From: an uncultured Gemmatimonadota bacterium
GTDB lineage: Bacteria; SM23-81; DAOVCL01
Direction: 5' to 3'
Assembly (NCBI GenBank): GCA_964626665.1
Contig: CAZVGK010000010.1
Coordinates: forward strand, 1 to 64,000
DNA: 64,000 bases
Position 1 is the stretch's first letter, and each line of letters begins with the position of its first letter. Of this stretch, positions 10,578 through 44,342 are shown piece after piece. The notes beneath the pieces were generated by a model, which saw only the letters and a list, made by a program, of their open reading frames with translations, was not told the origin of the DNA and searched no databases. Both the position numbers and the translations under genes were made by a program.

Positions 10578-11561
10578 ATGAAAATTGATCCCTCCAAGAT
10601 AAGAGATGTGGAGAGACTACAGAGATACGAAAAGATCTTCAGGCTAATGCTTAAGTTTGATAGATTCTCAAGAGAGGACATCTGGCGGTGTAAAGAAAGT
10701 AAGCAACTTATAGGCAGAGCTATAAATCTCCTTGTAAAAGAGGGGTCACTTTGCAAAGAGCCTGGCAAAAATTTTAAATGGGAGCCTTCAAGAAAGCTAT
10801 TATACAAAAATGCTTGGGTAGATAGAGTCGTATCAACTCATCAATTAAAGAGATTAGATAAGTTAAGTAGGCCAAGGGAGAAACTTTTGACATTTGGGCC
10901 CGCGAAGCTTATGACCTCGGAACTTCTGGCTATTTTTCTAAGGGCGGGGATAAAGGGTAAAAGTGTTGTGAGTTTGGCCAGTGAGCTACTAAATAAATTT
11001 GGTGGAGTGCGGGGAATCTTTGAGGCATCCAATAAGGAGTTATTACAAGTTGAGGGGTTGGGAGTGGCAAAAGTTGCCCAGATTAAGGCTGTTCATGCCT
11101 TAGCTGAAGAATACTTAAAGGAAAAGACAAAAGCAAGGAGGGTTGTGAGAAACTCGAAGGAAATTTTTGACTATCTCTATCACACAATGCGTGATCTTAA
11201 AAGGGAAGTCTTTAAAGTTATTTTCTTAGATGGAGGAAATCAGATTATAGATATTAAAGATCTCTTTGAAGGCACACTGAATTCATCATCGATTTATCCG
11301 CGTGAAGTTATAAAAAATGCCATTGAGAATGACGCAGTTAATCTTGTTTTTGTCCATAACCATCCCTCAGGAAATCCAGAGCCCTCTCAGAGCGATAAGG
11401 ATATAACGGAGGAACTGGTCTTTGCTGGAAACCTTATGCAGATTAAGGTCTTGGATCATATCATCATAGGTGACAATAAATATTTTAGTTTTGCAGATGA
11501 GGGACTGATTGAAGAATATCATCTTAATTTTTTGAGTATGAAAAGAGGCAAGAATGTTTAA
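10578..11561 (+). CDS. radC: RadC/JAB-domain protein with N-terminal extension
   Basis: RPREKL, HhH motif GLGVAK, YPREV, HNHPSG..PS..D and LDHIIIG. Confidence 0.9.
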   Translation: MKIDPSKIRDVERLQRYEKIFRLMLKFDRFSREDIWRCKESKQLIGRAINLLVKEGSLCKEPGKNFKWEPSRKLLYKNAWVDRVVSTHQLKRLDKLSRPREKLLTFGPAKLMTSELLAIFLRAGIKGKSVVSLASELLNKFGGVRGIFEASNKELLQVEGLGVAKVAQIKAVHALAEEYLKEKTKARRVVRNSKEIFDYLYHTMRDLKREVFKVIFLDGGNQIIDIKDLFEGTLNSSSIYPREVIKNAIENDAVNLVFVHNHPSGNPEPSQSDKDITEELVFAGNLMQIKVLDHIIIGDNKYFSFADEGLIEEYHLNFLSMKRGKNV

Positions 11562-12383: not shown

Positions 12384-12425
12384 AATCGGTTGTCGTTTTG
12401 GTTGTCGTTTTTTGAGGGAGTAAGT

Positions 12426-14375
12426 ATGAATAAACTCAGCAATGAAGAAATTGCGCTTATAACCAAATGTCTGAAAGAAGGTAAGCCCCTTCCTGATAGT
12501 TACAGATATATTATCCCTTTCGAAACAAAGAAGGAGTATGAGCTTACTTATGACGGCAAAGAGCGAGAGGAGGACATCCTTGCAGACACAATGGCGGTTC
12601 CTCTGCAACCGGTAAAGACATTCGGCAATGGTAATAATGCTTGGACTAACAAACTGATATTTGGGGATAATCTTCAAGTTCTCAAAGCCCTAATGGATGA
12701 TCCTGAGGTTTATGATAAAAACACAGGTAGGGGAAAAGTAAGGCTAATTTATATTGATCCTCCTTTTGCTACAAAACAGGAATTCAGAGGAAGTCAGGAT
12801 CAGAAGGCTTATCAAGACAAGATCGTAGGTGCACAGTTCTTAGAATTTCTGAGAAAAAGGCTTGTCTTCTTAAGAGAGCTCTTGGCTGATGATGGAAGCA
12901 TTTATGTGCATTTGGATTGGAAGAAAGGACATTATGTAAAAACACTAATGGATGAGATGTTTGGAGAACACAAATTTTTGAACGAAGTTATTTGGTGTTA
13001 TCGGGAAAGAGAAACCTCTACACGCTTTTATAACCGCAAGCATGAAGTAATCTTTTTCTATTGTAAATCAGATAGTTATCCATTTAATTTTAATGAAATA
13101 AGAGACGAATATAGTCAAGTAACTAAAGCTAAGTTTAAATATAAAGATGAAGAGGGATACTATAGGATTCGAGCTAAAGATGGGAGAAGCGATGTAGAAG
13201 AAGGAGTCGATACATATAGGCAATATATAGGGAAAGGAGTACTACCTCGTGATTGGACAATTATTCCATTCATTAATCAAGCTTCGACTGAGCGCGTGGG
13301 TTTCCCTACTCAGAAACCAGAAAGACTCTTAGAACGTATCATCAAAGCTTCCTCCAATCCAGGTGACATTGTCCTCGATGCCTTTGCTGGTTCCGGCACA
13401 ACAGGAGCAGTAGCAGAAAAACTTGGTAGAAGATGGATAATGATTGATTGCGGTAAATTAGCCATTTATACTATGCAAAAGAGATTGCTCAATTTAAGAG
13501 AAGAAATTGGAAACCGTGGAAAACCCCTAAAGCCAAAGCCTTTCACCCTCTATAATGCTGGGCTTTATGATTACAAGATGGTCAAAGACCTGCCCTGGGA
13601 TAAATACAGGGAATTTGTGCTTAAACTTTTCCAATGCCGGGATGAACCACATAGGATTGCTGGAATAGAATTAGACGGCTATCTTGGAGCAGATTCTGTG
13701 ATGGTTTTCAACTATAAAAAGTATGAGGATGTTATTTTGGATCGGGGATTTATTGATGACCTTCATAACATCCTTGGTGACAAAGTAGGCTATAAGTTCT
13801 TTATTATTGCTCCAGCAGCAAGCGTTACATTCTTTGAGGATTATATTGAAAAGCCCCGACAAAGTCGGGGTAAAGTCCAGACAAAATATTTTGCCCTGAG
13901 GATTCCGTATTCTATAATTGATGAACTCCACCGGAAGGGATTTAGCCACATCAAACAACCTATAAGAGAAGCAGATGTCAACGATACGATTGATGCGGTG
14001 GGATTCGATTTTATCCAAATTCCCGATGTGGAATGCGACTACTTTGTTGAATCCAAAAAGGGACAACTTAAAATAGACAAAAGCAATAAGGAAGCAGTGA
14101 TCAAGATCAAGAAGTTTAAAAGCAACATCTTATCAAAGAAACCTCTTAAATTCGAGAACAGAGAAACTCTTTCAATGGTAATGGTGGATTATGATTATAA
14201 TGGCCGTGTATTTGATTTTGATGATGTCTTTTATGCTGAAGATTTAAAGAAACAAGACTGGGAAGTCCGTTTTGATGCTAATAAAATAAACGGCCAGATG
14301 ATGACTATCTATATCGATATTTTTGGGAACGAGAAAAGGGAAGTAAAAAAGCTAAAGGATTTTAGGAAAAAGTGA
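12426..14375 (+). CDS. mod: Type III restriction-modification methyltransferase (Mod)
   Basis: IFGDNL, YIDPPF (motif IV), [16 protein letters not shown] (beta-class order) and a long C-terminal extension. ATG 12426 follows RBS GAGGGAG. Confidence 0.88.
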
Positions 14376-14540: not shown

Positions 14541-16214
14541 ATGAAAAAGGATCTCCAAATACCAAGAGAAGGGACCTTACCTATAAAAGTTAGTAAAGAT
14601 GTAGTTAAGCACTTAAGTATTGGGTTATACAGAAATTTTGCTTTGGCTGTCAAGGAGCTTATTTCGAACTCATATGATGCAGGCGCTACAGAAGTCAAGA
14701 TAAAATTAGATTTGGAGAATAGAAGAATCATAATCAGGGATAATGGCAGGGGGATGGACTATAACGAATTTAAAGAGGAATATCTCCGAATTGGTTTTTA
14801 CAAAGAGCCAGCAAAATCTGCAGATGAATTGGGACGTATGCGAATAGGCACATTTGGGATAGGGTTTCTAGCTCCATTACCCTACTGCAAAATAATGCGG
14901 GTAATCACTAAGAAAAGAGGCAGTAATACAACCATTGAAGCTACTGTAAATGCTGAAAATTTCTTTAGAAAGGGGACTTGGGATATTAAAAAAGAGAAGG
15001 TTCCTTTTAAAACTTATGATAGTGATTTACCCAAAAAAGAGGGAGAGACTATAATAGTTCTTGAGGATATTGAACCTCAGGTTGCTGAAGAGTTAAAAAG
15101 AGACGTTAGGGGAAAAAGATCTATCGAGCACAGTGGATTTGGGAAATTTAGATGGACACTATGTCAATATGCGCCTATTCAATTTTCTTCTGATAGAAAG
15201 AATTTGAGAGATTTCTTTGATGTACCAAACAGAGTTCCGATGAGATTATGGCTTGATGGTGAAGAACTTTTTAGAAATGTACCGGAAGGAGTTAAAATTT
15301 TGGAAAGGGGTGAAGAAAAATTTGGTGACATCTTCCTGAGATATGTCATAATGAGCCCTTATGACCCAATTAAACCAGAAGAGGCTCGAGGTCTTCAAGT
15401 TAGATTAAGAGATGTGGCAATAGGTTTCCCAAGAGACTTTGATGTTACGAAATTAGGTAGAGTCCTTGGAAAGTTGAATATGATTTGTGGTGAAGTTCAT
15501 ATAGTGAAGGGATTGGATAGTGCTTTGATGGTGAATAGAGACCAGTTTAACTATACCCAAGAAGTTGCTAATATGTATAAATTTTTCCAAGGCAAACTGA
15601 CAAAATGGAATGATAGACTCTATAATCAAATAGAAGAAGATAGAAAGGTTTATGATGCCTTAGGGGATCTAAAAAATGATGATGAAATTGTAGAGGGGTT
15701 AAAAAAGGTAGAGATTATTCATTTCTCCAAAGAAAGATTAAGATTCCAAGAAAAACCTATCACTAAAACAAGAAAAACTAAAGCTGAGATACCGTCAAAA
15801 AAGATAGTTAAGGTCTTATCAGAAACTAAGAAAAAGGATTATAAGATAATTCCCAAAAAAGGCGAGATATCCTCTGAAGAATCACCTATAAGGATATTAC
15901 CCGAAAAGAAGTCGATAGAAGTATACGAAGACCACCCTGCTTTTGTTGAAACTATAAAGATAGGAGAAAGAGAATTTAGAGTTGAATATGATGAATGGGA
16001 CCATAGTAAAACACCATATTCAATTTGTAGATTGCATGATGGGGAAAATAAGGTAGTATTCAATACATCACATCCGCTATTTAAAAGCAAATTAAGTGAT
16101 GAGATCATAAAACAATTGTCGTTGGGTATAGTCCTTATCCTAAAAGATAAAGAAGATGGGGAAGAGCTAATAGAGAAACTTAACCACCTGCTTGAAGATA
16201 CATTTAAGGGATAG
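14541..16214 (+). CDS. GHKL (MORC/HSP90-like) ATPase
   Basis: Bergerat-fold motifs ELISNSYDA, DNGRGM and GTFGIGF; C-terminal N.SHPLF; RBS AAGGAGG. Confidence 0.8.
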   Translation: MKKDLQIPREGTLPIKVSKDVVKHLSIGLYRNFALAVKELISNSYDAGATEVKIKLDLENRRIIIRDNGRGMDYNEFKEEYLRIGFYKEPAKSADELGRMRIGTFGIGFLAPLPYCKIMRVITKKRGSNTTIEATVNAENFFRKGTWDIKKEKVPFKTYDSDLPKKEGETIIVLEDIEPQVAEELKRDVRGKRSIEHSGFGKFRWTLCQYAPIQFSSDRKNLRDFFDVPNRVPMRLWLDGEELFRNVPEGVKILERGEEKFGDIFLRYVIMSPYDPIKPEEARGLQVRLRDVAIGFPRDFDVTKLGRVLGKLNMICGEVHIVKGLDSALMVNRDQFNYTQEVANMYKFFQGKLTKWNDRLYNQIEEDRKVYDALGDLKNDDEIVEGLKKVEIIHFSKERLRFQEKPITKTRKTKAEIPSKKIVKVLSETKKKDYKIIPKKGEISSEESPIRILPEKKSIEVYEDHPAFVETIKIGEREFRVEYDEWDHSKTPYSICRLHDGENKVVFNTSHPLFKSKLSDEIIKQLSLGIVLILKDKEDGEELIEKLNHLLEDTFKG

Positions 16215-16220
16215 AGGATA

Positions 16221-16958
16221 ATGACCGAGATTGTTTTAATAAAAGACAGACTGATAGATAAGCTATGGATTCCAATTGCTATTGCTGGTGGTAAAATCTT
16301 ATACTCCCGCCGAAAGAAAAATAAAAGAATGAAAGTGCTGACACTTACACACCATAGTAATTGTCGAGAAACAGACGAATTTATAAAAAATAAACTAACA
16401 AATAAGGAATTAATAGTTGGGTGGAATAAAGGAACTACTGAAGCTATACGATTAGAGGGTGAAAGATTAGGATCAGTTGTTGGACCCTATGTTTATGAAG
16501 ATTCTATAATCGGGGGGATGCCCGATGTTCAGAATAAATTTCCTTTTGATATACTCAACTTAGATTTTTCTTCTCAAAATCCTGAATCAGAAGGTGAAAG
16601 AGGAGAAAGAGAAATCCTTAGTATAGAACATACAATTAATCTGCAAGCAGATAAGAGAAATGATGGAATGGTTTTGATATATACAACACTTTTGGATTCT
16701 AATCCATTGAATCTAAATGAGATAAAACAGAGTTCTGATAATATCGGAATTCAAGGATGGGGTGGATTATCTATTGATAGACTACCTTACAATACAACAG
16801 ATTATCGTGAGAAAATCAGATGCTTGAAAGAGATACTCCAGCAGATATTCTCCAAATATCAGTATGAAAACATTGAAGATTTTGATCCATTATGTATAGG
16901 ACTATCTAATGGTTCTGGATACGTTTTATCGATTGGGGTATTATTAATAAGGAGTTGA
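16221..16958 (+). CDS. Hypothetical protein, possibly a degenerate Rossmann/SAM-MTase-like fold
   Basis: 245-aa ORF with an RBS, in an operon. FPFDILNLDF resembles strand 4 of class I MTases (weak). Confidence 0.55.
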   Translation: MTEIVLIKDRLIDKLWIPIAIAGGKILYSRRKKNKRMKVLTLTHHSNCRETDEFIKNKLTNKELIVGWNKGTTEAIRLEGERLGSVVGPYVYEDSIIGGMPDVQNKFPFDILNLDFSSQNPESEGERGEREILSIEHTINLQADKRNDGMVLIYTTLLDSNPLNLNEIKQSSDNIGIQGWGGLSIDRLPYNTTDYREKIRCLKEILQQIFSKYQYENIEDFDPLCIGLSNGSGYVLSIGVLLIRS

Positions 16959-17734
16959 GTGATATGACAATCTTTAAGGTAAGTGATCTCCCAACTGAAA
17001 CAAGAACTACTCACGAAAGTCAGAACAAATGGCGCAGAGAAAATTGGCAAAAAACATTAAAAGAACATAAACAAGATATTGAAGGACTTTTAAAGAAAAT
17101 TAGCTTATTTGACATCTGGTCTAACAAGTTGCAACACAATGATGTTGCTGTAAAATTAATTCCAGAAATTTTTATGGATGCTTATATTTCGATTCATTTT
17201 GCTGGTTATGGTCTTTATAAATATGCTCACATGTGTTTACGTTCTGAAATGGAAACAGCACTACGCTTGGTATTTTTCTCAACCCATAAAATTGAGTTTG
17301 AATGGTGGTCTGAAGGGAATGAATGGTACCGAGAAGAACTAAATTGGCCAGATGTTTGGGGCAAAGGATACAACTATTTTAGACAATTGGATGAAATAAA
17401 GGAATTTGAAAAACTGTGTGAAGATAATAAGAAATTATTTGGTGGGAGTAAAGTAGGTGTAAGTCGAGTCCACAAAGAACTATCAAAATTTATACATAGT
17501 GGTGCTGGTCATTTCCAAACAAGGGCAGATAGAGTTTCACCAAAACACGATCCAGGTGAATTCAGGAGATGGTATAAAACTTATGAAAAAGTACAAGCTT
17601 ATATCCATACAATATTTGCATTAGGATTTGCAGATAAATTTAAAAATATGCCTACCACTCGAAAAAATAAGATTTTAGATACTGGCATGGACGAATATTA
17701 TAAAGAAAAAGTGAAACAAATCTTGGGGTTATAG
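16955..17734 (+). CDS. Hypothetical alpha-helical protein, possibly a divergent HEPN-like domain
   Basis: Translationally coupled to the upstream gene. LRSEMETAL and KELSKFIHS patterns (weak). Confidence 0.55.
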   Translation: MSDMTIFKVSDLPTETRTTHESQNKWRRENWQKTLKEHKQDIEGLLKKISLFDIWSNKLQHNDVAVKLIPEIFMDAYISIHFAGYGLYKYAHMCLRSEMETALRLVFFSTHKIEFEWWSEGNEWYREELNWPDVWGKGYNYFRQLDEIKEFEKLCEDNKKLFGGSKVGVSRVHKELSKFIHSGAGHFQTRADRVSPKHDPGEFRRWYKTYEKVQAYIHTIFALGFADKFKNMPTTRKNKILDTGMDEYYKEKVKQILGL

Positions 17735-17737
17735 ATT

Positions 17738-18856
17738 ATGAAAAACAATATTATCAAGAGTGTAGAACATGGTTCAAATTATAAAATAACAATGGATAAT
17801 CACATTAAAACAGCGCCTTCAACGAGATATCAGGGAAGTAAACGACGCATTCTACCTTGGTTATATGAAAATTTAAGAGATTTAAAATTTAAGGCTGTCT
17901 TGGATGGATTTGGCGGGACTGCAAGCGTCAGTTATTTATTTAAATTAATGGGTAAAAAAGTAACTTTTAATGATATACTTTTATCAAATTACCAAACGGG
18001 GATTGCGCTTGTCGAAAATGATTCAGTAAAATTAGATCAAAGCGATATAGAGTTTCTACTTCACGAAAGTGGATTTGAGTATCCGACATTCATACAGGAT
18101 ACATTTAAAGGAATTTATTATTTAGATATAGAGAATAGATGGCTCGATATGGTTTCATTAAATATAGAAAAGTTATCTGAAAAATATAAGGGAGAAATAT
18201 TAAGAAAGAAAAAGGCTTTAGCATATCACATTTTATTTCAAGCTTGTTTGTGTAAACGGCCTTTTAACCTATTTCACAGAAAAAATCTTTATTTAAGAAC
18301 AGCGAATATCAAAAGAAGTTTTGGAAATAAGAAGACGTGGGATACAAATTTTAAAATTTTGTTTCTTCGGGTTCACAATGAAATTTCACAAAAAATTTTT
18401 TCTAATGGTCTAAACAATAAAGCAGTATGCAAAGACATAATGAAGATAAAGAATCGAAACTTTGATCTTGTTTATTTAGATCCTCCATATACAAGACCTA
18501 ATGAAAAATTTCCAAAGGACTACCATTCTCTGTATCATTTTCTTGAGGGATTAGTTGTTTATCATAATTGGCCTAAAAAAATAGATTGGAATACCAAGAA
18601 TAGACGACTAATTAATGGGAAAAATGATTGGAACAAGGGTTCCTTAGAAAAAAACTTTAATCAGCTTTTTAAGAAATTTCAAGATTCTATAATCGTTCTC
18701 TCATATGGGGATCCTGGAACTCCATCTATACAAAAAATTAAAGAACTCCTACGACAGTACAAATCTAAAATAAATATCGTGAGAAGAGAATACAAATACA
18801 AACTAAATCATAATAATGGGGATGGAATGCACGAAGTCTTGATAATTGGAAGGTAA
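17738..18856 (+). CDS. DNA adenine methyltransferase (D12/Dam-FokI-like, alpha class)
   Basis: RYQGSK, then DGFGGTASVS (motif I) before YLDPPY (motif IV). Confidence 0.85.
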   Translation: MKNNIIKSVEHGSNYKITMDNHIKTAPSTRYQGSKRRILPWLYENLRDLKFKAVLDGFGGTASVSYLFKLMGKKVTFNDILLSNYQTGIALVENDSVKLDQSDIEFLLHESGFEYPTFIQDTFKGIYYLDIENRWLDMVSLNIEKLSEKYKGEILRKKKALAYHILFQACLCKRPFNLFHRKNLYLRTANIKRSFGNKKTWDTNFKILFLRVHNEISQKIFSNGLNNKAVCKDIMKIKNRNFDLVYLDPPYTRPNEKFPKDYHSLYHFLEGLVVYHNWPKKIDWNTKNRRLINGKNDWNKGSLEKNFNQLFKKFQDSIIVLSYGDPGTPSIQKIKELLRQYKSKINIVRREYKYKLNHNNGDGMHEVLIIGR

Positions 18857-19159: not shown

Positions 19160-20320
19160 ATGGATAAAGAGGAATTAACAGAGATAATAGAAAAAGGGGA
19201 AGATTCGTTTACCGAATTCAAGGAGGAAAAGGTTCATCCTGATGATTTGGCTGCTGAGATGGTTGCTTTTGCCAATACTGAAGGCGGAAAAATACTATTG
19301 GGAGTTTCTGATAAAAAAGAGATTAAAGGTCTATCAATACCCGATAAAGAAATGCAGAGGGCTGAGAATATCTCTCATAATAATTGTGAACCGTCACTTG
19401 CTGTAAGTATAGAAAAAGTTAAGGTCAATAAAAAAATGATCTTATGTATTTACATATCCAAAGGGCCAGAAAGACCTTATAGGACAAATAGAGGCGTATA
19501 TTATATCAGGACAAGTTCTGGTAGAAGGCAAGCCACAAGAGAAGAACTTCTGAGGCTCTATCAGGCAACTCGTTCCATTTATTATGATGAACTGCCCGTG
19601 CCTGCAACTTCTGTTGATGAATTGGACATACTTTATTTCAGAAGATTTTTTGAAAGTTTTTACCAGACAAAGATTGAAGATATGAACGCTGACTTGAATA
19701 AGCTATTAGAGAACATGAAGGTTTTAACATGGATGGATGAGAAGTTAGTCTTTACTGTCGGGGGTTATCTTTTATTTGGATTAAATCCGCAGAAAGAGTT
19801 TCCGTTTGGCAAAATTACAATTGCGAAATTTGATGGTAATGAGATAGGAGAGGAATTTGAGAAAAAGGACTTGGAAGGAAAACTTGTTGAACAGATTGAT
19901 GGTGCAGACAGAGTCTTAAATCAATATCTTAAAACAAAGGTTAAGATTGAAGGATTTGGAAATGAATTAAAATTTGAAATTCCAAAGGGAGTATTGAGAG
20001 AAGCTGTAGTCAATGCCATTGCCCATCGTGATTATCATATCCCTTCTCAAATTCGCATCTTCATATTTGATAACAGATTGGAGATTATGAGCCCCGGAAA
20101 ATTACCCAACACAGTTACCCTGGAAAACATAAAGTTAGGTGTGCATTCAGAACGGAATCAACTCATTGTTTCCTATCTTGCAAAGATGGGCTATATGACC
20201 CAGATTGGAACTGGTGTTCCCAGAATGATCAGGCTTCTAAAAGAGCATACTGGCAAAGAACCTGAATTTGAAGAGCGAGACCATCAATTCACAGTGAGAA
20301 TCTGGAGACCGGATTTATGA
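19160..20320 (+). CDS. Schlafen/AlbA_2 domain protein with C-terminal HATPase_c_4-like domain
   Basis: GEDSFTEFKE, AFANTEGG.I.LGV, REAVVNAIAHRDY, SPGKLP and GTGVPR. Confidence 0.85.
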   Translation: MDKEELTEIIEKGEDSFTEFKEEKVHPDDLAAEMVAFANTEGGKILLGVSDKKEIKGLSIPDKEMQRAENISHNNCEPSLAVSIEKVKVNKKMILCIYISKGPERPYRTNRGVYYIRTSSGRRQATREELLRLYQATRSIYYDELPVPATSVDELDILYFRRFFESFYQTKIEDMNADLNKLLENMKVLTWMDEKLVFTVGGYLLFGLNPQKEFPFGKITIAKFDGNEIGEEFEKKDLEGKLVEQIDGADRVLNQYLKTKVKIEGFGNELKFEIPKGVLREAVVNAIAHRDYHIPSQIRIFIFDNRLEIMSPGKLPNTVTLENIKLGVHSERNQLIVSYLAKMGYMTQIGTGVPRMIRLLKEHTGKEPEFEERDHQFTVRIWRPDL

Positions 20321-22815
20321 TAGTAGATAAAAAGGTATTCAAAAATCAGGACCTTGTTCTTAGGGTTTCTCCAAATATTGATCCTGAGAAGTTTGATATA
20401 AATAAGTATGAGCCATTTATGGATGCTACTTGTAGGGAGAGGGAGTATCAGAAAGAGGCTATAAGGGTTACTTTGCGATACCTTTTGGGAGGTCAATATA
20501 ATGACCTTAAGGAATTGGCAGAAGAGAATTACCGCCAGAATCCAGTTCTGCAGGAAAGATACGGGTCATTAGAAGATTTTTATCAGCATTTACAGCTACC
20601 TGACAAGCTTTCCTGCACCATAGATTTAGCCACTGCCACTGGTAAGAGCTATGTTCTTTATGGGATTGCTCGAATTATGCTCGCCAAGGGAACCGTAGAT
20701 CAAGTATTGGTGCTTTGCCCTTCCAACACAATAGAAACAGGTTTAACCGAAAAATTCCGCTCATTATCAGCCGATGGGACTTTGAAGGATTTGCTATCAG
20801 ATTCTGCGGAGATTCTAAACCCCAGGATCATTAATGCCACTCAGACAATCCAGAAAGGCGATATTTGCATAGAAAATATCCATGCCACTTATCAACGGAC
20901 CAAATCTGCCATAGAAGATAGTCTTATAGGCAAAGGCGAAAGAACACTTGTGTTAAATGACGAAGTTCATCACATGGCCAATCCTCCCGCTCGTGATATG
21001 GCTATAAAGAAATGGAAAGAATTTTTGCTTAATCCTAAATACGATTTCAGATACATAGTCGGTGATTCAGGTACCTGTTATGTTGACAATGATTATTTTG
21101 CAGATGTGATTTATCGGTTTTCCTTGAGGGATTCGATTGAGAAAAAGTTTGTAAAAACGATTGACTATGTGGCTGAGGATGTTTCTCATTCAAAACCCGA
21201 AAAATTCCAAAAGATTTACGATAATCACATCCAGAATAAAATGGTGAAATATCGATTGATCAAACCCCTCACGATCTTAGTTACTAAAAATATCAGTGCT
21301 TGTAAAAAGCTAACAGAAGAGTTAATTGGATTCATAGCAGAGAAAGAGAGAATAAGCAAAGAGGTCGCCTCAAATAAGGTTTTGATTGTGACCTCAGCTC
21401 GTGAGCACAAAGATAATATAGCAAAGCTTAAGAACGTTGATGATAAGGACAATCCCATTGAATGGATTACATCAGTCAGCATGCTTTCCGAAGGATGGGA
21501 TGTGCAAAATGTGTGTCAGATTGTTCCCCACGAGGAAAGAGCTTTTAATTCCAAATTGCTCATTGCGCAAGTGCTGGGGAGAGGGTTGAGAATACCACCG
21601 AAATATAAAGGAGAACAACCTGTTGTTACTGTATTCAACCATGATAAGTGGTCAAGTAGCATCAAGCACTTGGTCAACGAAGTTCTTGAAATAGAGAAAA
21701 GGATTCATAGCCGCGTTATTGCTAAGGATGAGAATTACAATTTTAAGCTCCACAACATAAGGTATGACAAGACACCAGAAGTTTTAGAAACTCCAAAAGT
21801 TGCCGAGTATAAGTTTAGCAAGGGGTTTTCTCTAAGTAGCGAAGACCAAGTGAAAATAATAGAGGAGGAGACCATTTACGAAAGGGCAGTCGTAGAAAAA
21901 CAGCGTGAAAAGAAAACCCTCATTGAATTTAAAGTGTATTCAGCGGAGGAAATTGCTCAGGTTGTCCATAGCAGATATAGAAGTTGGGATATGGATGAAG
22001 GCACTGATTATGCGCGGAAGTATCCCTATGACAAAATCCTATCGATCATAAAAAACTCTCTGAGAGATAAGGGAAATTTGATTAACGATAAAGGCAGACA
22101 GAAGCTACTACAAGGGTTCGGAGTAACAAGAAGAAAAAAGAGTAAAAGGCTGAGATATAAAATTGAGGCCGAGGATCTCTCTTCGATTGATACTGCAGAT
22201 GTCAAGAAAAGTAGTTTGGGAATTGGGGCTTTAAGAAGAGATGGCAGTATTTTTTATGATGATTACTCTCTAAAAACTGGAGAAGATGAGGACAAAAAGT
22301 TATTAAAAAAGGTTATTGAAATGTTTGATGACGGACAACTGCACAGCGCTTCTTTAATTAAGGTTGAAAACTCATATAATTTTAAAACACCACTAAATAT
22401 TATTTTTGCCTCATATAAACCAGAGAGGGATTTCATTAAGAGGCTGGTTAAGGAAGAAAATGCCAGGGGAATTGATTCATGGATAAAATCTCCTGATGTT
22501 GGTTTCTATAGTGTGGAATATTCCTGGAGAAAAGGGGAACATCCCAAACAGGGGAGTTTTAATCCTGACTTTTTCATAAAGATTGGAGGAGACACATTGG
22601 TAGTTGAAATTAAGGCTGATTTAGATGTCTCTGATGAGAATAGGGCCAAATTAAGATATGCAGAAGAGCACTTCAATCGTCTAAATGCTTTACAGTCAAA
22701 ATGCAGATATTATTTCAAGTTCCTATCTCCGCGAAGTTTTGACCTCTTTTTTCAATGTTTAAGAGAGAGACAATATCAGAATTTCAAGTCTGAAATAGAG
22801 GCTTCTTTAGAATGA
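20317..22815 (+). CDS. res: Type III restriction enzyme Res subunit (SF2 helicase + PD-(D/E)xK nuclease)
   Basis: Walker A ATATGKS, DEVHH, LSEGWD, QVLGRGLR, and C-terminal PDF...VEIK. Confidence 0.88.
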   Translation: MIVDKKVFKNQDLVLRVSPNIDPEKFDINKYEPFMDATCREREYQKEAIRVTLRYLLGGQYNDLKELAEENYRQNPVLQERYGSLEDFYQHLQLPDKLSCTIDLATATGKSYVLYGIARIMLAKGTVDQVLVLCPSNTIETGLTEKFRSLSADGTLKDLLSDSAEILNPRIINATQTIQKGDICIENIHATYQRTKSAIEDSLIGKGERTLVLNDEVHHMANPPARDMAIKKWKEFLLNPKYDFRYIVGDSGTCYVDNDYFADVIYRFSLRDSIEKKFVKTIDYVAEDVSHSKPEKFQKIYDNHIQNKMVKYRLIKPLTILVTKNISACKKLTEELIGFIAEKERISKEVASNKVLIVTSAREHKDNIAKLKNVDDKDNPIEWITSVSMLSEGWDVQNVCQIVPHEERAFNSKLLIAQVLGRGLRIPPKYKGEQPVVTVFNHDKWSSSIKHLVNEVLEIEKRIHSRVIAKDENYNFKLHNIRYDKTPEVLETPKVAEYKFSKGFSLSSEDQVKIIEEETIYERAVVEKQREKKTLIEFKVYSAEEIAQVVHSRYRSWDMDEGTDYARKYPYDKILSIIKNSLRDKGNLINDKGRQKLLQGFGVTRRKKSKRLRYKIEAEDLSSIDTADVKKSSLGIGALRRDGSIFYDDYSLKTGEDEDKKLLKKVIEMFDDGQLHSASLIKVENSYNFKTPLNIIFASYKPERDFIKRLVKEENARGIDSWIKSPDVGFYSVEYSWRKGEHPKQGSFNPDFFIKIGGDTLVVEIKADLDVSDENRAKLRYAEEHFNRLNALQSKCRYYFKFLSPRSFDLFFQCLRERQYQNFKSEIEASLE

Positions 22816-23018
22816 TTAACTTTGCCGGGTAGTGGAAACCTGGATCCAGATACTGGGTTAGGGAGCTTAGATAAGCTCTATAATGCCGTAACCGTTTTTA
22901 CTTGCTGCCGATCCCAGAAGGCAAAGACGGTTATGGGGAGGGGAATGAGCACTGAAGATACATCCTTATTAAAAAAGCAAAGGCGTAGATGATTGCACTG
23001 CAAAAAGGCTGAAGGTTG

Positions 23019-23094
23019 GGTAGCCGCAACCTTCAGGTTGCGTAAGTAGTTGGTTTATCGAGCTCCTTTTCGCAGGCTAAAGCCTGCGGCTACC
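23019..23094. repeat. Inverted pair of GTAG-type REP palindromes
   Basis: ggtagccgcaaccttcaggttgcg ... cgcaggctaaagcctgcggctacc. The second unit recurs at ~44177-44198, and a shortened form occurs at ~42815-42850. Confidence 0.7.
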
Positions 23095-23119
23095 GATTTT
23101 AGTTTTTGTAGTAGAATAG

Positions 23120-23989
23120 ATGGCATTGAAAATTGAAAAGGGAATAACCTTAAAGATTATGGAATATAAGGTAATAACTCCGAATGATTCTGAATATCCG
23201 AAAAGGCTCGTTGAAAGGTTAGGAGACAAATCTCCTGAGAAGATATATTATAGCGGCCCATTAGAATTCCTTGACCGTTTCACTATGGCAGTGATTTCTG
23301 CTGATTCGATAACTGGGCAGGCACTGAATGAGACAAATCAGGTTCTGTTCACTGTAAGGGAATATGAGATGAATTATATTGGTGGTTGGCATTCGGTAAT
23401 GGAAACCGAGATTTTCCGGTTGGGGCTATTCAGAAGAAATACTACGGTAACTCTCTTTACTGCAAAAGGGTTGCAGGTTGAGACATTTGAATTTTTTCTG
23501 AAGGATAGGTTTTATCCCCCCTTGCACGAATTTCCGGAAAGGGATGAGTATTTCAGACGGGTCAAAACTGGTGAATTATTGATACTTTCTCTTAGTGACC
23601 CGGATGAGACGAGGCAGTTGCGAAAGAATATAATGGAGAGAAACTGGATATCTTGTGCTCTTGCCGATATTGTTTTTATCCCCTATGGTCCCAAAGGCTC
23701 AAAGACTTACACAATGGCGAAGAGAATTTCTTCCACGAATATACCGGCCTTTACACTTGATAGTGGCGAATGCAAGGACCTTCTTCAACTTGGCATTCCT
23801 GGATTTAAGCGAAAAACAGTGAAAGCCTTCCTTGAGGGCAACGGGGCAAAATTAGCAGTTCCACCGGATGAGATAAGGAAGTCTGTTGAAGCATATAAAA
23901 ATCCAACGAGTCAGCAACTATCATTTATAAAGGAGCCCACCCAGACGGAACTAGAGTTTAAGAAAAACAGCAAGGATAGTGAGCCATAA
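23120..23989 (+). CDS. DprA/Smf-like (SLOG Rossmann-fold) protein
   Basis: ITPNDSEYPKRL...P.KIYYSG at the N-terminus and RN..S.ALAD.VFI...GSKT. Alternative start at ATG 23159. Confidence 0.6.
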   Translation: MALKIEKGITLKIMEYKVITPNDSEYPKRLVERLGDKSPEKIYYSGPLEFLDRFTMAVISADSITGQALNETNQVLFTVREYEMNYIGGWHSVMETEIFRLGLFRRNTTVTLFTAKGLQVETFEFFLKDRFYPPLHEFPERDEYFRRVKTGELLILSLSDPDETRQLRKNIMERNWISCALADIVFIPYGPKGSKTYTMAKRISSTNIPAFTLDSGECKDLLQLGIPGFKRKTVKAFLEGNGAKLAVPPDEIRKSVEAYKNPTSQQLSFIKEPTQTELEFKKNSKDSEP

Positions 23990-24070
23990 GTATTGTTAGG
24001 GCTTATTGCTCTATAACCATCCTTGCCTGCCATCGACTTCAGAAAGTAAGGACAATTAGGGGGAAGGAGA

Positions 24071-26092
24071 ATGGAAAAAGACCTCTTTGAGAAAAAAGAA
24101 GCGCAGATGGTTAGCAAACACAACATTCTCGAAAACTATCTTGAGCCGTGGATAATAATCTTTTCCTCTGCGGGACAAAAATGGGCAAAGAAACTATATT
24201 ATGTGGATGCCTTTGCTGGAACGGGAAGATTTGCTACCGGAGAAGAGGGTTCTCCAGTAATTGGAGCAAGACTTTTGAGGCATTACTGGAAACCGCAAAT
24301 ATACTACTGTTGTATATGCATAGAAAAGGAAAGCAAACGAGTAAAGGAACTTGAAAGTGAATTAAATCAATTTCGAGATAAAGTGGATATAAAAATTTAC
24401 CCCGGTGAATTTGATGATAAAACGGATGAAGTGATTAACGAAATTGGTAATCATCCTGCCTTTTTCTTGATTGATCCTGAAGGGTTTTCAGGGATGAGCT
24501 TTTTGTCTATTGAAAAAATTCTTGAGTTACCGCATAAAGAAGTTCTAATTAACTTTCAATATAATGCAGTACAACGCTGGTTGAAAGCAAAAAAGGTGGG
24601 AAAAACAATTACTGATTTATTTGGAACTGACAAGTGGATAGAGATTCCCCGAAAGGGACTCCAGAAAAGCGAAAAGGAAAGAGCATTAGTCGAACTTTAT
24701 AAATCCCAGTTGAGAGCAAAGGGATATTATGTCTGGTACTTCAGGAATAAAATCCCAGCAAAGAATAGAACATTCTACTATCTTGTTTACGCTACCAGGA
24801 ACCTCACAGGTTTTAAGATAATGAAGGGAGTGATTTTTAAGGAAGAAAGTAGAAGATATTTTGAGCCAAATTTATTTGAGGAAGTAGATTTTACGGAGTT
24901 TCAAAACGAATTGTTAAGAAAGTATAAAGGAACTAAGGTTTTGTATAAAGAAGTTTTGGTGTATGTTTTACAGGAAACGAACTATCTGGCAGGGGACCTG
25001 GATTTAGTTATAAAAAATGTGAGAATTAAAAAGGAATATAACCCAAAAGAAAGGAATAACTTCTGGCTTGTTTTCCCTATGTCTTACGGAGCATTGAATA
25101 CTCGTAAATTCCATATTCGGGAGAGTGATATTTCTTTTGTATCTCCTAAAACTATTACAAGAGGGCCAAGAATCTTATACAATGAGGAAGATTTAGTAAG
25201 GCAGGTTGCTGATGGCTCCATCATTAAACGATTTGATAAAACTCCTTATCCAGTTAAGCCCACGGATGTTGTTTGTCCTCATTTCCTTGAGTTGAAATGG
25301 GCTTATGGGTGTCCGTTTAATTGTAGCTGGTGTTACTTGAAGGGCACTTTTCGTTTTAGGCCGGAGGGGATAAAACCTGCTTATAAACCTATGGAAAAGG
25401 TAAAATTGCATACGGAGACATTTCTTCAGAAAGTGAAGATTCCAGAGATTCTTAATACTGGTGAGATAGCCGATTCCTTAATGAAAGAGAATGGTGATAG
25501 TCCATTCTCTAAATTCATCATCCCCATCTTTGAAACTCAGAACATGCACAAGGTTTTGTTTGTTACCAAATCATCGAATATAAAGAACTTTTTAGAGATG
25601 CCCTCTCATAGGCAGGTTATAGTGAGTTTCAGTCTTAATGCTTTCCCGGTAGCAGAGAGGTGGGAGAAAGGGGCTCCCCCTGTTCCAAAACGAATCGAGG
25701 CGGCGAAGAAAGTCGCCGACGCAGGCTATGAAGTCAGGATAAGAATTGACCCAATGATACCAGTGGAAAACTGGAAGGAATATTATATCCAACTGATAGA
25801 CGAGATATTCACGAGATTTGTTCCTGAAAGAATTACCTTGGGTTCTTTAAGAGGGCTTCAGAGCACAATCAACGGCACTAATGACACCAGTTGGGTTAAA
25901 TATCTAAAAGAAAGCTCAAACTGGGGGAGAAAAATAGATTTTACCACAAGATGTAGAATCTACAAAACCATTATTGGGTATCTGAGTGACAAATACAATT
26001 ATTCCCATATAGCCTTGTGCAAGGAAACAAAGGCGATGTGGGAGAAATTAGGGATGGATTGGACCCAGATTAGATGTAATTGCGTATGGTAG
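24071..26092 (+). CDS. Fusion of a three-Cys-motif partner (TcmP-like, MTase fold) and a spore-photoproduct-lyase-like radical SAM domain
   Basis: N-half: KH.IL.NYL, YVDAFAGTG, GSP, FLIDP.G, EVLINF and YYLVYATRN..G..IMK. C-half: CPFNCSWC (CxxxCxxC), TGEIADS, FVTKS and IRIDPMIP. Confidence 0.75.
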   Translation: MEKDLFEKKEAQMVSKHNILENYLEPWIIIFSSAGQKWAKKLYYVDAFAGTGRFATGEEGSPVIGARLLRHYWKPQIYYCCICIEKESKRVKELESELNQFRDKVDIKIYPGEFDDKTDEVINEIGNHPAFFLIDPEGFSGMSFLSIEKILELPHKEVLINFQYNAVQRWLKAKKVGKTITDLFGTDKWIEIPRKGLQKSEKERALVELYKSQLRAKGYYVWYFRNKIPAKNRTFYYLVYATRNLTGFKIMKGVIFKEESRRYFEPNLFEEVDFTEFQNELLRKYKGTKVLYKEVLVYVLQETNYLAGDLDLVIKNVRIKKEYNPKERNNFWLVFPMSYGALNTRKFHIRESDISFVSPKTITRGPRILYNEEDLVRQVADGSIIKRFDKTPYPVKPTDVVCPHFLELKWAYGCPFNCSWCYLKGTFRFRPEGIKPAYKPMEKVKLHTETFLQKVKIPEILNTGEIADSLMKENGDSPFSKFIIPIFETQNMHKVLFVTKSSNIKNFLEMPSHRQVIVSFSLNAFPVAERWEKGAPPVPKRIEAAKKVADAGYEVRIRIDPMIPVENWKEYYIQLIDEIFTRFVPERITLGSLRGLQSTINGTNDTSWVKYLKESSNWGRKIDFTTRCRIYKTIIGYLSDKYNYSHIALCKETKAMWEKLGMDWTQIRCNCVW

Positions 26093-26257
26093 AATAATGG
26101 AGTTTCTGAATTAAAGGATTCGTCTTATGCTAAAAAACACCGAATGACACCGAAAAAAATAGCACTTCATTCTTGAGTGAAACTTTTGTTTTGGATTTGT
26201 TCAGTGATTTTCGGTGTTTAATGTCCAACCCGGGATTATTAGAGATGGTAAAAGCTG

Positions 26258-26596
26258 ATGGGTAAAAATACGAAAAATATACCGGATTTGGAGAGGCTGA
26301 TCAATTTTATATCCTCGAAATATCTTCCAGAGAAGATCATTCTCTTTGGCTCTTACGGAACCCCATCAAGACGAGATAATTCCGATATAGACCTGCTGAT
26401 CATAAAAAAGACAGATAAGAAGTTTGTAGATAGAGTAGTAGAACTGATGCAGCTCATCAGGAGTCAATTTGGGGTTGAATATCCTGTTGAGCCTCTTGTT
26501 TATACTCCAGCCGAATTTAGAGGAGCCGAAATGACAAGCAGTCTATTTATTCGGACAGTTTTGTCGAAAGGGGTTATTTTGTATGAAAAAAAATAA
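26258..26596 (+). CDS. Minimal nucleotidyltransferase (MNT antitoxin)
   Basis: ILFGSYG...SDIDLLII motif. Confidence 0.85.
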   Translation: MGKNTKNIPDLERLINFISSKYLPEKIILFGSYGTPSRRDNSDIDLLIIKKTDKKFVDRVVELMQLIRSQFGVEYPVEPLVYTPAEFRGAEMTSSLFIRTVLSKGVILYEKK

Positions 26597-26990
26597 ACCT
26601 GCAGCGGAGATTTGGCTGAGAAAAGCTAAGGAGGATCTTGCCTTTGCGGAGGCTGGTTGGAAGGAGAGCAAGATAGCATCAGTTACCTGCGTGCTTTGCC
26701 AGCAGGCGGTAGAGAAGGCCTTGAAATCTCTTCTGGAATTAGAAAATATCAGCATAGAAAGAACCCCGTCTCTTAAGACTCACAGATTGGTGGATATAAT
26801 TGAGGAATGTAGAGGATATTATCCTCAGGTAGAGATGTTCACCGATGATTGTGACAAATTAACGGTCTATTATTTTGATAGGTATCCAGCTGATATTCCC
26901 TTGAATTTGACCGAAGAAGATGCCGCATTTGCCCTGGAGACAGCGGAGAAGATCCTAAGTTCTGTAGAGGGGATAATATCAAAAGCCTGA
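26583..26990 (+). CDS. HEPN domain protein (partner of MNT)
   Basis: W..KA.EDL, CQQAVEKALK, KTH.L and RYP. Overlaps the MNT gene. Confidence 0.85.
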   Translation: MKKNKPAAEIWLRKAKEDLAFAEAGWKESKIASVTCVLCQQAVEKALKSLLELENISIERTPSLKTHRLVDIIEECRGYYPQVEMFTDDCDKLTVYYFDRYPADIPLNLTEEDAAFALETAEKILSSVEGIISKA

Positions 26991-44093: not shown

Positions 44094-44342
44094 CCTTAAA
44101 ATGCGTCTATGTTTTTCTTTGCTCCAAGCGCTAAAGGATTCCGTCAGGGCAGGAGCCCTGACGGCACAGGGCGCTGCAGGCTAAAGCCTGCGGCTACCTA
44201 CTGGAACCGGTTTGAGGGAAGCAGACCTAAGAGTCCTTCCTTACGGAATGTTTTTCCTCTCTTGTCGTCAGGTGAGGACACCTGACGGCTCGTGGAGGGT
44301 ACTTTGTGCCTTAGTGCCTTCGTGGCATATGAATTATTCAGG

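Follow-up and report, generated by a model that had tools for sequence, protein, structure and literature searches.

A recurrent fusion of a TcmP methyltransferase-fold domain and an SPL-like radical-SAM domain, a candidate accessory module for DNA base modification

The window analysed here, a stretch of 64,000 nucleotides from an uncultured Gemmatimonadota bacterium, carries downstream of a Res-like helicase and a DprA-like gene an ORF of 673 amino acids (P0001, 24071..26092) that encodes a TcmP domain, a winged helix, a linker and a radical-SAM domain with the fold of spore photoproduct lyase (SPL). All the window genes discussed lie on the forward (+) strand. The original prediction described one uninterrupted ORF, and the ORF list indeed shows it unbroken. 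The motifs named at the time are all present in the translation: YVDAFAGTG, GSP, FLIDPEG, YYLVYATRN, CPFNCSWC and a terminal CNC (followed by VW). A strong Shine-Dalgarno-like sequence, GGGGGAAGGAGA, lies 5' of the ATG at 24071.

It is hardly credible that an assembly chimera or a recent deletion joined two genes in this assembly only. The one observation found in favour of such an event is that the assembly graph of runs X18 and X19 branches at 25063-25092, close to the domain border. A dispersed intergenic repeat of about 115 nt with two hairpins (23000..23120), located outside the module, explains the assembly-graph branches. Records from the same two runs that start at 25063 cross the linker (25097-25187), and run X1, possibly the source sample, yields a 7213-nt contig that spans 23069-26300 with zero differences, so the junction withstood the check by spanning sequence. 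Moreover, among the 580 homologues of the fusion protein, 118 of the best 120 are full-length, covering at least 95% of it, and the fused gene recurs at 28 loci in species genomes of many phyla. An artefactual origin is thus refuted, and the fusion is not unique to this assembly, an outcome that would have undermined the prediction.

The N-terminal half (aa 15-255; 24113..24835) is TcmP, as had been proposed. It matches TIGR04474 over positions 5-259 of the 263-position model (8.9e-51; 173.3 bits against a cut-off of 53; 176 bits in the genome-wide profile search), and its predicted structure (pLDDT 92) is a class I SAM methyltransferase fold. Motif I reads YVDAFAGTG and is followed by GSP, and IDPEG occupies the position of motif IV. 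Across 57 sequences, D46, S61, D135, P136 and Y236 are invariant, and F48, G50 and G52 are kept in at least 90%. The structures closest to the predicted model (VIA-align) are those of RlmJ/DUF519, the 23S rRNA m6A2030 methyltransferase (6qe5_A, Z 18.3; 2oo3, Z 18.0; rmsd 2.7-2.9 over about 205 residues), with the next family at 14.0. By eye, both families have KH in the first helix, (Y/L)-D-x-(F/H)-A-G-x-G-R-(F/Y), GSP and IDP; in RlmJ these read KH, YLDTHAGAGRY, GSP and IDPPY. However, the likeness in sequence is marginal (hhalign probability 56.6% over 20 columns, motif I only), and motif IV is DPEG or DPFG in TcmP (IDPEG in the window, DPFG in the consensus) instead of IDPPY. TcmP therefore groups with RlmJ/DUF519 by fold and not by sequence, and the replacement of DPPY by DP(E/F)G suggests that it may not be an ordinary amino-methyltransferase. 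It differs from RlmJ, a universal rRNA enzyme, also in being an accessory gene product that precedes a winged helix and is tied to a radical-SAM enzyme. The nearest structural relative of TcmP methylates rRNA, not DNA, a point against the DNA-modification reading considered below.

The same half matches two PADLOC defence candidates, PDC-M30A (5.1e-25) and PDC-M41A (7e-11); it is the A gene of the PDC-M30 models that is matched, and the C-terminal half matched none of them. The PDC entries are candidate systems that are not known to have been tested.

Between the two halves, residues of about 259-340 (24845..25090) are predicted to form a winged helix. Its elements follow the order helix-strand-helix-helix-strand-strand at aa 274-334, with a mean pLDDT of 88-97 in 10-residue blocks. 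A Pfam search gave no match for this region in the window protein itself; in homologues it is matched by the GMT-like wHTH family PF22560 (8.7e-7 in P0077). A disordered linker follows (aa 343-363; 25097..25159; pLDDT <50).

The C-terminal half (aa 373-673; 25187..26089) is the conserved core of the module, with 65-84% identity between phyla. It belongs to the radical SAM superfamily by its partial TIM-barrel fold and by its CX3CX2C motif for the [4Fe-4S]/SAM cluster (C414, C418 and C421, followed by Y422; 25310..25333). All 102 rSAM domains have the three cysteines, radical-SAM structures fill the fold-search list, and PF04055 scores 21.6 bits on the fusion protein, below its cut-off of 29.5. 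The SPL-like character claimed for this half was borne out. The broad family PF20903 matches aa 410-582 (1.7e-18; 67 bits against a cut-off of 27), SPL (SplB; PDB 4fhc, 4rh0) is the best structural match in a Foldseek search (E 1.5e-9), and comparison with 4fhc_A gives Z 19.4 and rmsd 3.1 over 250 residues, the next structure being LIAS at 15.1. The segment CPFNCSWCY aligns with the SPL cluster motif CMGHCHYCY, and Y422 (Tyr in 80 and Phe in 20 of the 102 domains) with the radical-relay residue Tyr98.

The domain is not a true SPL, however. The H-donor Cys140 of the Geobacillus enzyme aligns with A467 in the HMM alignment, a variable column (A 31, S 29, C 14 and G 9 of 102), and the PF20903 match is limited to positions 83-254 of the 338-position SPL model. 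Scores stay far below the cut-offs for the SPL equivalog TIGR04070 (76.9 against 400 bits) and for TIGR03886 (39.6 against 437.55 bits). There are four extra conserved cysteines: C402 (codon at 25274-25276), found in all 102 domains, and a C-terminal triad of C650, C669 and C671 (26018..26083), found in 102, 100 and 99. SPL is not known to have these additional residues. A second metal might be bound by the four. Counted by offset alone, C402, which is invariant, would fall about two residues from S76, the alternative position probed in PDB 4rh0. Unlike SPL, the rSAM domain comes with methyltransferase, HsdS or ParB modules, either fused or linked, and is found in restriction-modification (RM) neighbourhoods, not in a sporulation context. 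An ordinary SPL-family paralogue is encoded elsewhere in the same genome (C9:76750-77613; 122 bits). Nor is the C-terminal half a DUF5131 protein (PF07505): it gave no Pfam match to that family at E <= 0.1, and a profile of 22 DUF5131 neighbours aligned to the rSAM profile with an hhalign probability of 0.4%. Clustering with either family would have told against the original prediction, and neither was found.

TcmP had been said to pair normally with a separate DUF5131 gene. This proved correct for 22 of the 30 best TcmP loci from 301 sampled Chloroflexota genomes, 58 of which contain TcmP, and all five partners tested are PF07505. It also holds that the partner in the window is a different radical-SAM family, and that it is fused; the fusion is recurrent. 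A profile search found PF07505 neither in the fusion protein nor in the whole 99.65%-complete genome. A third type of partner, an SPL-like rSAM protein of roughly 400 aa, is present at 7 of the 30 loci. The TcmP/DUF5131 pair ("phage Gp37/Gp68", uncharacterised; PDC-M30/M41) likewise has a cysteine-motif partner from the radical-SAM superfamily, but the partner here has the SPL fold, a CX3CX2C motif plus the four extra cysteines, and is fused through a winged helix. In the classification of RadicalSAM.org, DUF5131 (Megacluster-5-2) stands next to SPL (Megacluster-5-3) (PMC9477430). TcmP has the appearance of an RlmJ-type methyltransferase whose constant companion is a radical-SAM enzyme from a single megacluster.

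In 80 species genomes of many phyla, TcmP and rSAM are fused at 28 loci, adjacent in one order at 27 and in the other at 2-3, and rSAM stands alone at 14; on the rSAM tree, the fused state requires at least 12 changes. We take this as evidence that the two halves are functionally linked. In 12 of the 14 genomes with stand-alone rSAM, TcmP was not found anywhere in the genome. The rSAM core occurs by itself or joined, as a fusion or as a neighbour, to TcmP-wHTH, to wHTH alone, to ParB_N plus ParB HTH, or to HsdS. Among ten rSAM proteins scanned, four have ParB_N at the N-terminus, with or without HTH_ParB, one (P0142) has HTH_ParB alone, one more has a C-terminal ParB_N, and one is fused to HsdS. 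A library clustered at 50% identity contains 156 representative clusters at E <= 1e-30 and 1707 at E <= 1e-3. Viral occurrence is rare, with four loci in IMG/VR and one weak match in GenBank phages, and most carriers belong to taxa that the record titles label as anaerobes.

At the core of the gene family stands the radical-SAM domain; the family is widespread, accessory and passed on horizontally. Its accessory status shows in the strong matches, which are limited to 5 of 151 genomes of a Dehalococcoidia-type class and absent from the two genomes that share the genus of the window's organism, and in the location of the window's fusion gene within a low-GC island. Conserved positions amid housekeeping genes are seen for the module in Dehalococcoidia and Ignavibacteria. 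The 114 immediate neighbours include MtnA (8), MTA phosphorylase (7), RecX (4), MnmA (3), TrmO (3) and MnmE (2). No published description of the module was found in the literature.

The module is often the last gene of an RM operon. Counted from BLAST families only and with no random-gene control, RM genes lie within four genes of it in 26 of 81 loci, and 27 of those 31 RM genes are upstream and on the same strand; no RM gene was recognised by the BLAST families within four genes in the other 55 loci. The RM types that precede it are unrelated (Type I, IIG, III and CfrBI). Stand-alone rSAM copies have HsdS, a CfrBI endonuclease or a Res helicase directly upstream, and Eco57I-type RM genes are inserted beside the module in the syntenic Dehalococcoidia loci L007, L055, L064 and L066. 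The claim that the fusion gene lies directly downstream of a Type III RM system stands in part. A ResIII-family, Type III Res-like helicase of 832 aa (20317..22815; ResIII 8.6e-13, REase_III 4e-11) is indeed upstream, but the Type III Mod-like N6_N4 DNA methyltransferase of 661 aa (12390..14375; PADLOC MTase_III 2.2e-57) is another 6 kb upstream, and five genes separate the two. A similar order of Mod, Res and rSAM recurs in L029, L041 and L059, all of which have homologues of the Mod-like gene. In L041 and L059 a weakly similar Res-like helicase (22-29% identity over 28-46% of its length) is directly 5' of rSAM.

The DprA-like (SLOG-type) gene P0002 (23120..23989; 289 aa) matches the broad family PF02481 (DNA_processg_A; 37.1 bits against a cut-off of 29.6). 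With 33.4 bits against the 191.15 of the DprA equivalog TIGR00732, it is not DprA proper. Its homologues have about 276 aa and begin at the invariant M14, so that its true start is probably nt 23159 and not 23120. The proposal that this gene is an accessory of the module found no support: a relative occurs with the rSAM gene in only 2 of 81 rSAM loci and, in reverse, rSAM is present at 6 of 82 DprA-like loci, all from the closest relatives. The constant neighbour of the DprA-like family is an upstream Eco57I-type Type IIG RM gene (58 of 82 loci). The gene goes with the upstream RM genes rather than with the fusion and is not a specific partner. P0002 resembles the DprA-like antitoxin or accessory proteins PsyrA (1.1e-9) and ShosA (5.4e-5) of PADLOC. 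In Shosta and Psyrex, the partner of the DprA-like protein is a phosphoribosyltransferase toxin; the constant neighbour in the family of P0002 is an Eco57I-type Type IIG enzyme.

It is probable that the module acts chemically on DNA. DNA is suggested as the target by the winged helix between the halves, by the ParB and HsdS fusions elsewhere, by the RM neighbours and by the fact that the closest structure to the rSAM domain is a DNA enzyme. We propose, with a probability of roughly 0.45, an accessory two-enzyme, SAM-dependent module that acts on DNA bases and writes a non-canonical base modification. By analogy with SPL, the rSAM domain would bind DNA with a base exposed to the active site. 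It is predicted to cleave SAM to a 5'-deoxyadenosyl radical, which would abstract a hydrogen atom from the base or from a group already on it. The TcmP domain, with a second SAM, would methylate the same site before or after the radical step. The product would be a post-replicative, non-canonical base modification that might supplement the neighbouring RM system or be read together with it. Because TcmP is missing from 12 of the 14 genomes with stand-alone rSAM, this two-step scheme cannot be general; and because the module follows many unrelated RM types with their own methyltransferases, it cannot be the cognate modifier of each.

A functional precedent for DNA modification is gp53 of Pseudomonas phage M6. 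[quoted passage not shown] Its relationship to the rSAM family is distant (hhalign probability 52%, E 1.5e-4, 24% identity over 142 columns) and, unlike that family, it is phage-encoded and next to a PLP enzyme, with no TcmP. A more detailed proposal, which we offer as a long shot, is that cells use this radical-SAM family to write, on DNA bases, a mark that no known system makes. The CX3CX2C cluster would generate the radical and the four extra cysteines would hold a second iron-sulfur cluster, which might insert sulfur or form a carbon-carbon bond at the base. A methyl group added last by TcmP would complete the product, for instance as a methylthio or C-methyl purine or pyrimidine within the DNA. 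Which sequence is targeted would depend on the HsdS, ParB or winged-helix modules, and the mark could serve as a second, radical-made layer of self-identity beside RM methylation.

Three other functions were weighed against DNA base modification. As its nearest structure is a repair enzyme, the rSAM domain might work without oxygen as a lyase that undoes a DNA lesion, in the way SPL acts on the spore photoproduct. The lesion could be an aberrant alkylation or cross-link left on host DNA by methyltransferases or restriction enzymes, and TcmP and the DNA-binding modules would only help to find it. The tyrosine or phenylalanine at the SPL relay position fits this role, as do the many genomes with rSAM and no TcmP and the predominance of carriers labelled as anaerobes; O2-dependent AlkB-type repair is not expected to work in anaerobes. 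We nevertheless consider repair somewhat unlikely, given the variable Cys140 position, the partial match to the SPL model and the SPL-family paralogue already present in the genome. In addition, fusion to HsdS, a sequence-specificity subunit, suits a writer more than a lesion scanner, and for a repair enzyme one would expect a more even distribution than 5 of 151 genomes. A role in defence, in which the rSAM domain damages foreign DNA or strips or alters phage base modifications so that modified phage DNA regains sensitivity to the adjacent restriction enzyme, appears quite unlikely. The module lacks toxin-like regulation, a sensor and an immunity partner, many copies lie amid housekeeping genes without an RM gene, and an intact SAM-binding methyltransferase domain would have no obvious task. 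Such a role would agree with the position at the 3' end of unrelated RM types, as befits a generic helper, with the PDC-M30A and PDC-M41A matches of the N-terminal half and with the patchy, horizontal spread. A validated radical-SAM defence system with other partners, Ophion, is described in a preprint (bioRxiv 10.1101/2025.09.30.679545).

The kinship of TcmP with the rRNA m6A methyltransferase RlmJ also raises the question of RNA. An RlmJ-like m6A step could be combined with a radical step on rRNA or tRNA (compare RlmN and MiaB), the RM genes being island clutter. The tRNA-modification genes MnmA, TrmO and MnmE among the immediate neighbours and the conserved housekeeping positions in Dehalococcoidia and Ignavibacteria are consistent with this, but those tRNA-gene neighbours come from a few related taxa, and Eco57I-type RM genes lie beside the module even in the four syntenic loci. 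A housekeeping enzyme should also be widely kept, in contrast to the few strong matches within the class and none in the two same-genus genomes, and the HsdS, ParB and wHTH fusions are DNA modules. An RNA substrate is accordingly very doubtful.

Besides SPL, the only radical-SAM enzyme we found reported to act on DNA bases is gp53 (PMC8989533), a list that may be incomplete. If modification of DNA is the correct reading, the rSAM family would add a widespread cellular group whose members carry ready-made targeting modules and have a clear link to RM cassettes. The link also offers a first clue to the function of TcmP, a family that has a name but has so far not been characterised. A new DNA mark would change how the epigenomes of anaerobes are read and could give a sequence-directed DNA-modifying tool.

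Other genes of the island recur near the module as well, and co-location in an island alone is no proof of shared function. A RadC-like JAB gene (10578..11561) lies on the 5' side of the low-GC island, and RadC is upstream of the module in eight loci. A Schlafen AlbA_2 + HATPase_c_4 gene (19160..20320) overlaps the start of the helicase gene by 4 nt. Direct BLAST found its homologues near the module in L019 and L060, and clustering added L042, which has the same two Pfam domains. Just downstream of the fusion is a pair of MNT (nucleotidyltransferase) and HEPN genes (26258..26990), and the MNT family is found near the module in seven loci, the window included.

The fusion of a TcmP domain to a radical-SAM (rSAM) domain is real and recurrent. 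As the original prediction had stated, the ORF listing of the window and the translation give a single unbroken frame of 673 aa at 24071–26092 (+), with all of the motifs that had been quoted for it. The junction also held at the level of reads: one contig of sequencing run X1 covers 23069–26300 without a difference, and records of runs X18 and X19 traverse the linker. An assembly artefact is very improbable. A cassette-less variant, suggested by a 3039-nt joint (23094>26134) among the mapped contigs, was rejected, since the joint has sides of only 22 nt and is accounted for by a dispersed repeat at 23000–23120. Together with the DprA-like gene, the fusion is housed in a low-GC stretch (about 10–27 kb of the window; GC 0.33–0.40 compared to about 0.5 outside).

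At E ≤ 1e-3 a homologue search with the fusion yielded 580 proteins, some labelled TcmP at NCBI and some "spore photoproduct lyase" at JGI; at least 95% of the query is spanned by 118 of the best 120. A single-protein search of species genomes gave no match. When an alignment was used to scan one genome for each species, 194 relatives emerged, the best 80 loci of which were kept and classified with HMMs built from the three parts of the protein. The TcmP and rSAM domains are fused in 28 of these 80 loci, and a TcmP gene is followed by an rSAM gene in 27. The reverse gene order occurs in two loci, both archaeal; a third case, L078, has a partial TcmP and is counted among the seven loci where the rSAM gene is alone at a contig edge. 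In 14 loci rSAM is alone with room upstream. The remaining two are L031, a fusion truncated by the contig end, and L020 (187–1236), which encodes a 349-aa derivative joining fusion residues 1–25 to residue 351 onward; this is an internal deletion taking out TcmP and the winged helix. Architectures interleave and phyla mix in a quick maximum-likelihood tree built from the rSAM domain, with at least 12 changes of the fused state and at least eight of the stand-alone state on well-supported branches. The row closest to the window, from a WOR-3 genome, is a stand-alone copy.

The rSAM half most resembles spore photoproduct lyase (SPL). Pfam PF20903 ("SPL") covers aa 410–582 with 67 bits (cut-off 27). 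SPL was the best structural match both in Foldseek (E 1.5e-9; next radical-SAM enzyme 3e-5) and in VIA-align, where 4fhc_A reached Z 19.4 (residues 380–651 against 68–341), above LIAS (15.1), LipA (14.8) and MqnE (14.8). An SPL orthologue is ruled out by the score for the SPL equivalog TIGR04070, 76.9 bits against a cut-off of 400, and by the alignment to PF20903, which spans only model positions 83–254 of 338. In addition, the hydrogen-donor Cys140 of SPL aligns with A467 of the fusion, in a column that is variable among 102 rSAM domains (the window and 101 representatives of clusters at 50% identity). In this set C402, C414, C418, C421 and C650 are present in all 102 domains, C669 in 100 and C671 in 99. 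The four extra ones (C402, C650, C669 and C671) may form a second metal site. The window's genome carries, apart from the fusion, an ordinary SPL-family paralogue on contig C9 (76750–77613, in a 369-aa frame), which matches PF20903 with 122.5 bits over model positions 1–288 of 338.

The rSAM domain is the core of the module. When aa 373–673 were searched against 1.84 billion representatives, 1707 matches were obtained at E ≤ 1e-3, 849 at ≤ 1e-10 and 156 at ≤ 1e-30. Among the best 150, 118 have at most 90 residues N-terminal of the domain and 32 are longer, seven of which carry TcmP. A Pfam scan of 10 other longer proteins found ParB_N at the N-terminus of four (one of these also with HTH_ParB) and at the C-terminus of one, an HsdS specificity domain in one, and LAGLIDADG inteins inside the rSAM domain of three (P0134, P0147 and P0150); a further protein, P0142, showed HTH_ParB but no ParB_N. 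In three viral contigs (L090–L092) the 301-residue query segment is matched over about 2050 nt, a span that might reflect a similar insertion. A genome-wide search for TcmP came up empty in 12 of the 14 genomes that carry stand-alone rSAM (metagenome-assembled, completeness not given), and an iterated TcmP profile detected none hidden beside the stand-alone genes. The former result argues that the rSAM enzyme is independent of TcmP: TcmP requires a radical-SAM partner, and the fusion-type rSAM does not require TcmP. The family is patchy, with strong matches in five of 151 genomes of the Dehalococcoidia-type class; two genomes of the same genus gave matches of only 27–29%, of the type given by the ordinary SPL paralogue. 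It is also rare in viruses (four IMG/VR loci and one 26% match among GenBank phages).

The whole-protein AlphaFold model (pLDDT 78.9) has two folded halves separated by a disordered linker (aa 343–363). Modeled alone from a 57-sequence alignment, the N-terminal part (pLDDT 92, pTM 0.91) adopts a Rossmann-type methyltransferase fold followed at aa 274–334 by a winged helix (helix-strand-helix-helix-strand-strand); the middle part of some homologues matches PF22560, "GMT-like wHTH". In a structural search against representatives, the TcmP part was closest to Escherichia coli RlmJ (6qe5_A, Z 18.3, rmsd 2.9 over 206 residues) and to the DUF519 protein 2oo3 (Z 18.0), other methyltransferases being clearly lower (next Z 14.0). 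By eye, KH, YLDTHAGAGRY, GSP and IDPPY of RlmJ correspond to SKH, YVDAFAGTGRF, GSP and IDPEG of the window protein, although hhalign confirmed only the motif I stretch (probability 56.6%). PF04378, named RsmJ, gave no match, which is uninformative on RlmJ, and the TcmP profile found nothing meaningful among the sequences of solved structures (best E 1.3, a designed protein). Every one of 57 TcmP domains has D46, S61, D135, P136 and Y236, and conservation reaches at least 90% for K16, F48, G50, G52, G60 and P62. Even though motif IV is DP(E/F)G instead of the DPPY of RlmJ, this conservation argues that the SAM pocket is under selection.

TcmP had been expected to pair normally with a separate DUF5131 gene, and this proved correct. 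TcmP scored over its cut-off in 58 of 301 Chloroflexota genomes, and 22 of the 30 best loci there have an adjoining protein that is about 260 aa long and bears a C-x5-C-x2-C motif; it was PF07505 (DUF5131) in all five genomes tested. At seven of the 30 the adjoining protein is instead a radical-SAM enzyme, about 400 aa long and akin to the window's domain (hhalign 97.9%), and one has neither. No DUF5131 was found in a search of the window's genome. In the RadicalSAM.org listing, DUF5131 is Megacluster-5-2 and SPL is Megacluster-5-3 (PMC9477430). TcmP therefore has related radical-SAM partners of at least three types, the window's among them. The 400-aa proteins form a second SPL-like family (CPxECxFCY ... 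MPCAC; L176–L178, L187, L188, L194 and L195), which shares with the window's family both the C-terminal CxC and the cysteine of PCK.

Restriction-modification (RM) genes are common neighbors of the module in our census of BLAST families, which took their names from Pfam matches of representatives. Of 81 rSAM loci, 26 have one or more RM-family genes within four genes, a count that misses singletons and has no random-gene control, and the same is true of 20 of the 48 loci with more than 3 kb upstream; 27 of 31 such genes lie upstream and share the strand of the module. Eighteen loci have an Eco57I/MmeI-type Type IIG enzyme, mostly directly upstream. Other neighbors are Res-like helicases with an endonuclease domain (L029, L030, L041, L059 and the window), HsdS (L019, L028, L056 and L061), a CfrBI endonuclease (L070), Schlafen-type ATPases, and RadC at eight loci. 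Other loci are flanked by housekeeping genes, in the order RecX, module, AlaRS in Ignavibacteria and MtnA, module, MTA phosphorylase in Dehalococcoidia (L045, L057, L064, L068, L069, L076 and relatives). MtnA (IF-2B family) and the MTA/5'-deoxyadenosine-type phosphorylase (PNP_UDP_1) salvage by-products of SAM enzymes, and this flanking may be functionally meaningful or may mark a hot spot for insertion. Some Dehalococcoidia genomes have Eco57I-type genes inserted at the same site.

The proposal that the DprA-like gene is an accessory of the fusion did not stand. This ORF (23120–23989 (+), 289 aa) matches the DprA domain PF02481 (37.1 bits, cut-off 29.6) and scores 33.4 bits against the DprA equivalog, far below its cut-off of 191. 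Because homologues begin at the invariant M14, nt 23159 is the likelier start. The family, large and strongly conserved, gave 458 matches, the best 120 being 60–100% identical (the query's own entry included). The gene is present at two of the 81 rSAM loci, the window and L062, and jackhmmer over the rSAM loci found no copy beyond that of L062. In the reverse test on 82 DprA-like loci (80 from metagenomes, L062 and the window), rSAM follows in six: L062, the window, L094 (the window's own contig) and L095–L097. These are only the closest relatives of the window's gene. A protein of about 1090 aa with Eco57I, N6_Mtase and TaqI_C domains lies directly upstream on the same strand in 58 of the 82; at other loci the gene comes after an N6_N4 methylase with a BglII endonuclease. 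The DprA-like gene is therefore a restriction-gene add-on, here of the Res-like helicase, rather than a partner specific to the fusion. A predicted complex with the rSAM domain scored 0.01, which weighs neither for nor against binding. Across metagenomes (L098–L173) the family (about 276 aa, 60–90% identical) lies directly 3' of the Type IIG enzyme at these 58 of 82 loci, and the pair may be an unrecognised two-gene restriction system. ORFs of 193 and 249 aa are among the neighbors at L062, and the segment 16221–17734 is among those in the window.

A DNA substrate is favored by the winged helix, by fusions to HsdS and ParB, by a fold shared with a DNA enzyme and by the location within RM operons. 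The evidence also favors an accessory, horizontally spread role. At a probability of roughly 45%, our main reading is a DNA-base-modifying module, in which the rSAM domain would perform the key hydrogen abstraction and TcmP would add the methyl group. Phage M6 gp53, described as an SPL-like enzyme acting on a DNA base modification (PMC8989533), is a precedent, but its kinship to the fusion rSAM is distant. An oxygen-independent repair lyase might be read from the SPL fold; given the variable Cys140 column, we regard it as unlikely.

A role as effector or anti-modification helper of restriction is consistent with the RM neighbors and less so with the Dehalococcoidia and Ignavibacteria gene orders, and seems to us less likely again. 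RNA modification, which the resemblance of TcmP to RlmJ could invite and the pointers to DNA oppose, ranks lowest of these three rivals as an improbable reading. A literature search found no published description of the fusion or its radical-SAM family; supplementary candidate lists, outside that search, may mention the module. For TcmP, this search yielded only incidental gene-table mentions and the RadicalSAM.org listing.

The intergenic element at 23000–23120 is about 115 nt long, with two hairpins (arms 23019–23045 and 23068–23094). It is dispersed, with 28 BLAST matches in the genome, a partial second window copy at 44175–44198 and 11 copies of at least 90 nt on other contigs (77–87% identical). 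No Rfam family matched the window or the intergenic repeat (22800–23130), and the element may represent a repeat of the REP or MITE type or a family of small RNAs. Just 3' of the fusion, a hairpin with 24-nt arms (26135–26219) shows raised depth and many short joints in mapped contigs, and is probably a further repeated element. The stretch 14541–18856, which separates the Type III-like Mod gene from the Res gene, encodes a 557-aa HATPase_c_3 protein with weak PADLOC matches to MzaB and Type II REase models, a Dam-like D12 methyltransferase of 372 aa, and two ORFs of 245 and 259 aa without family; these genes may constitute a separate defence system.
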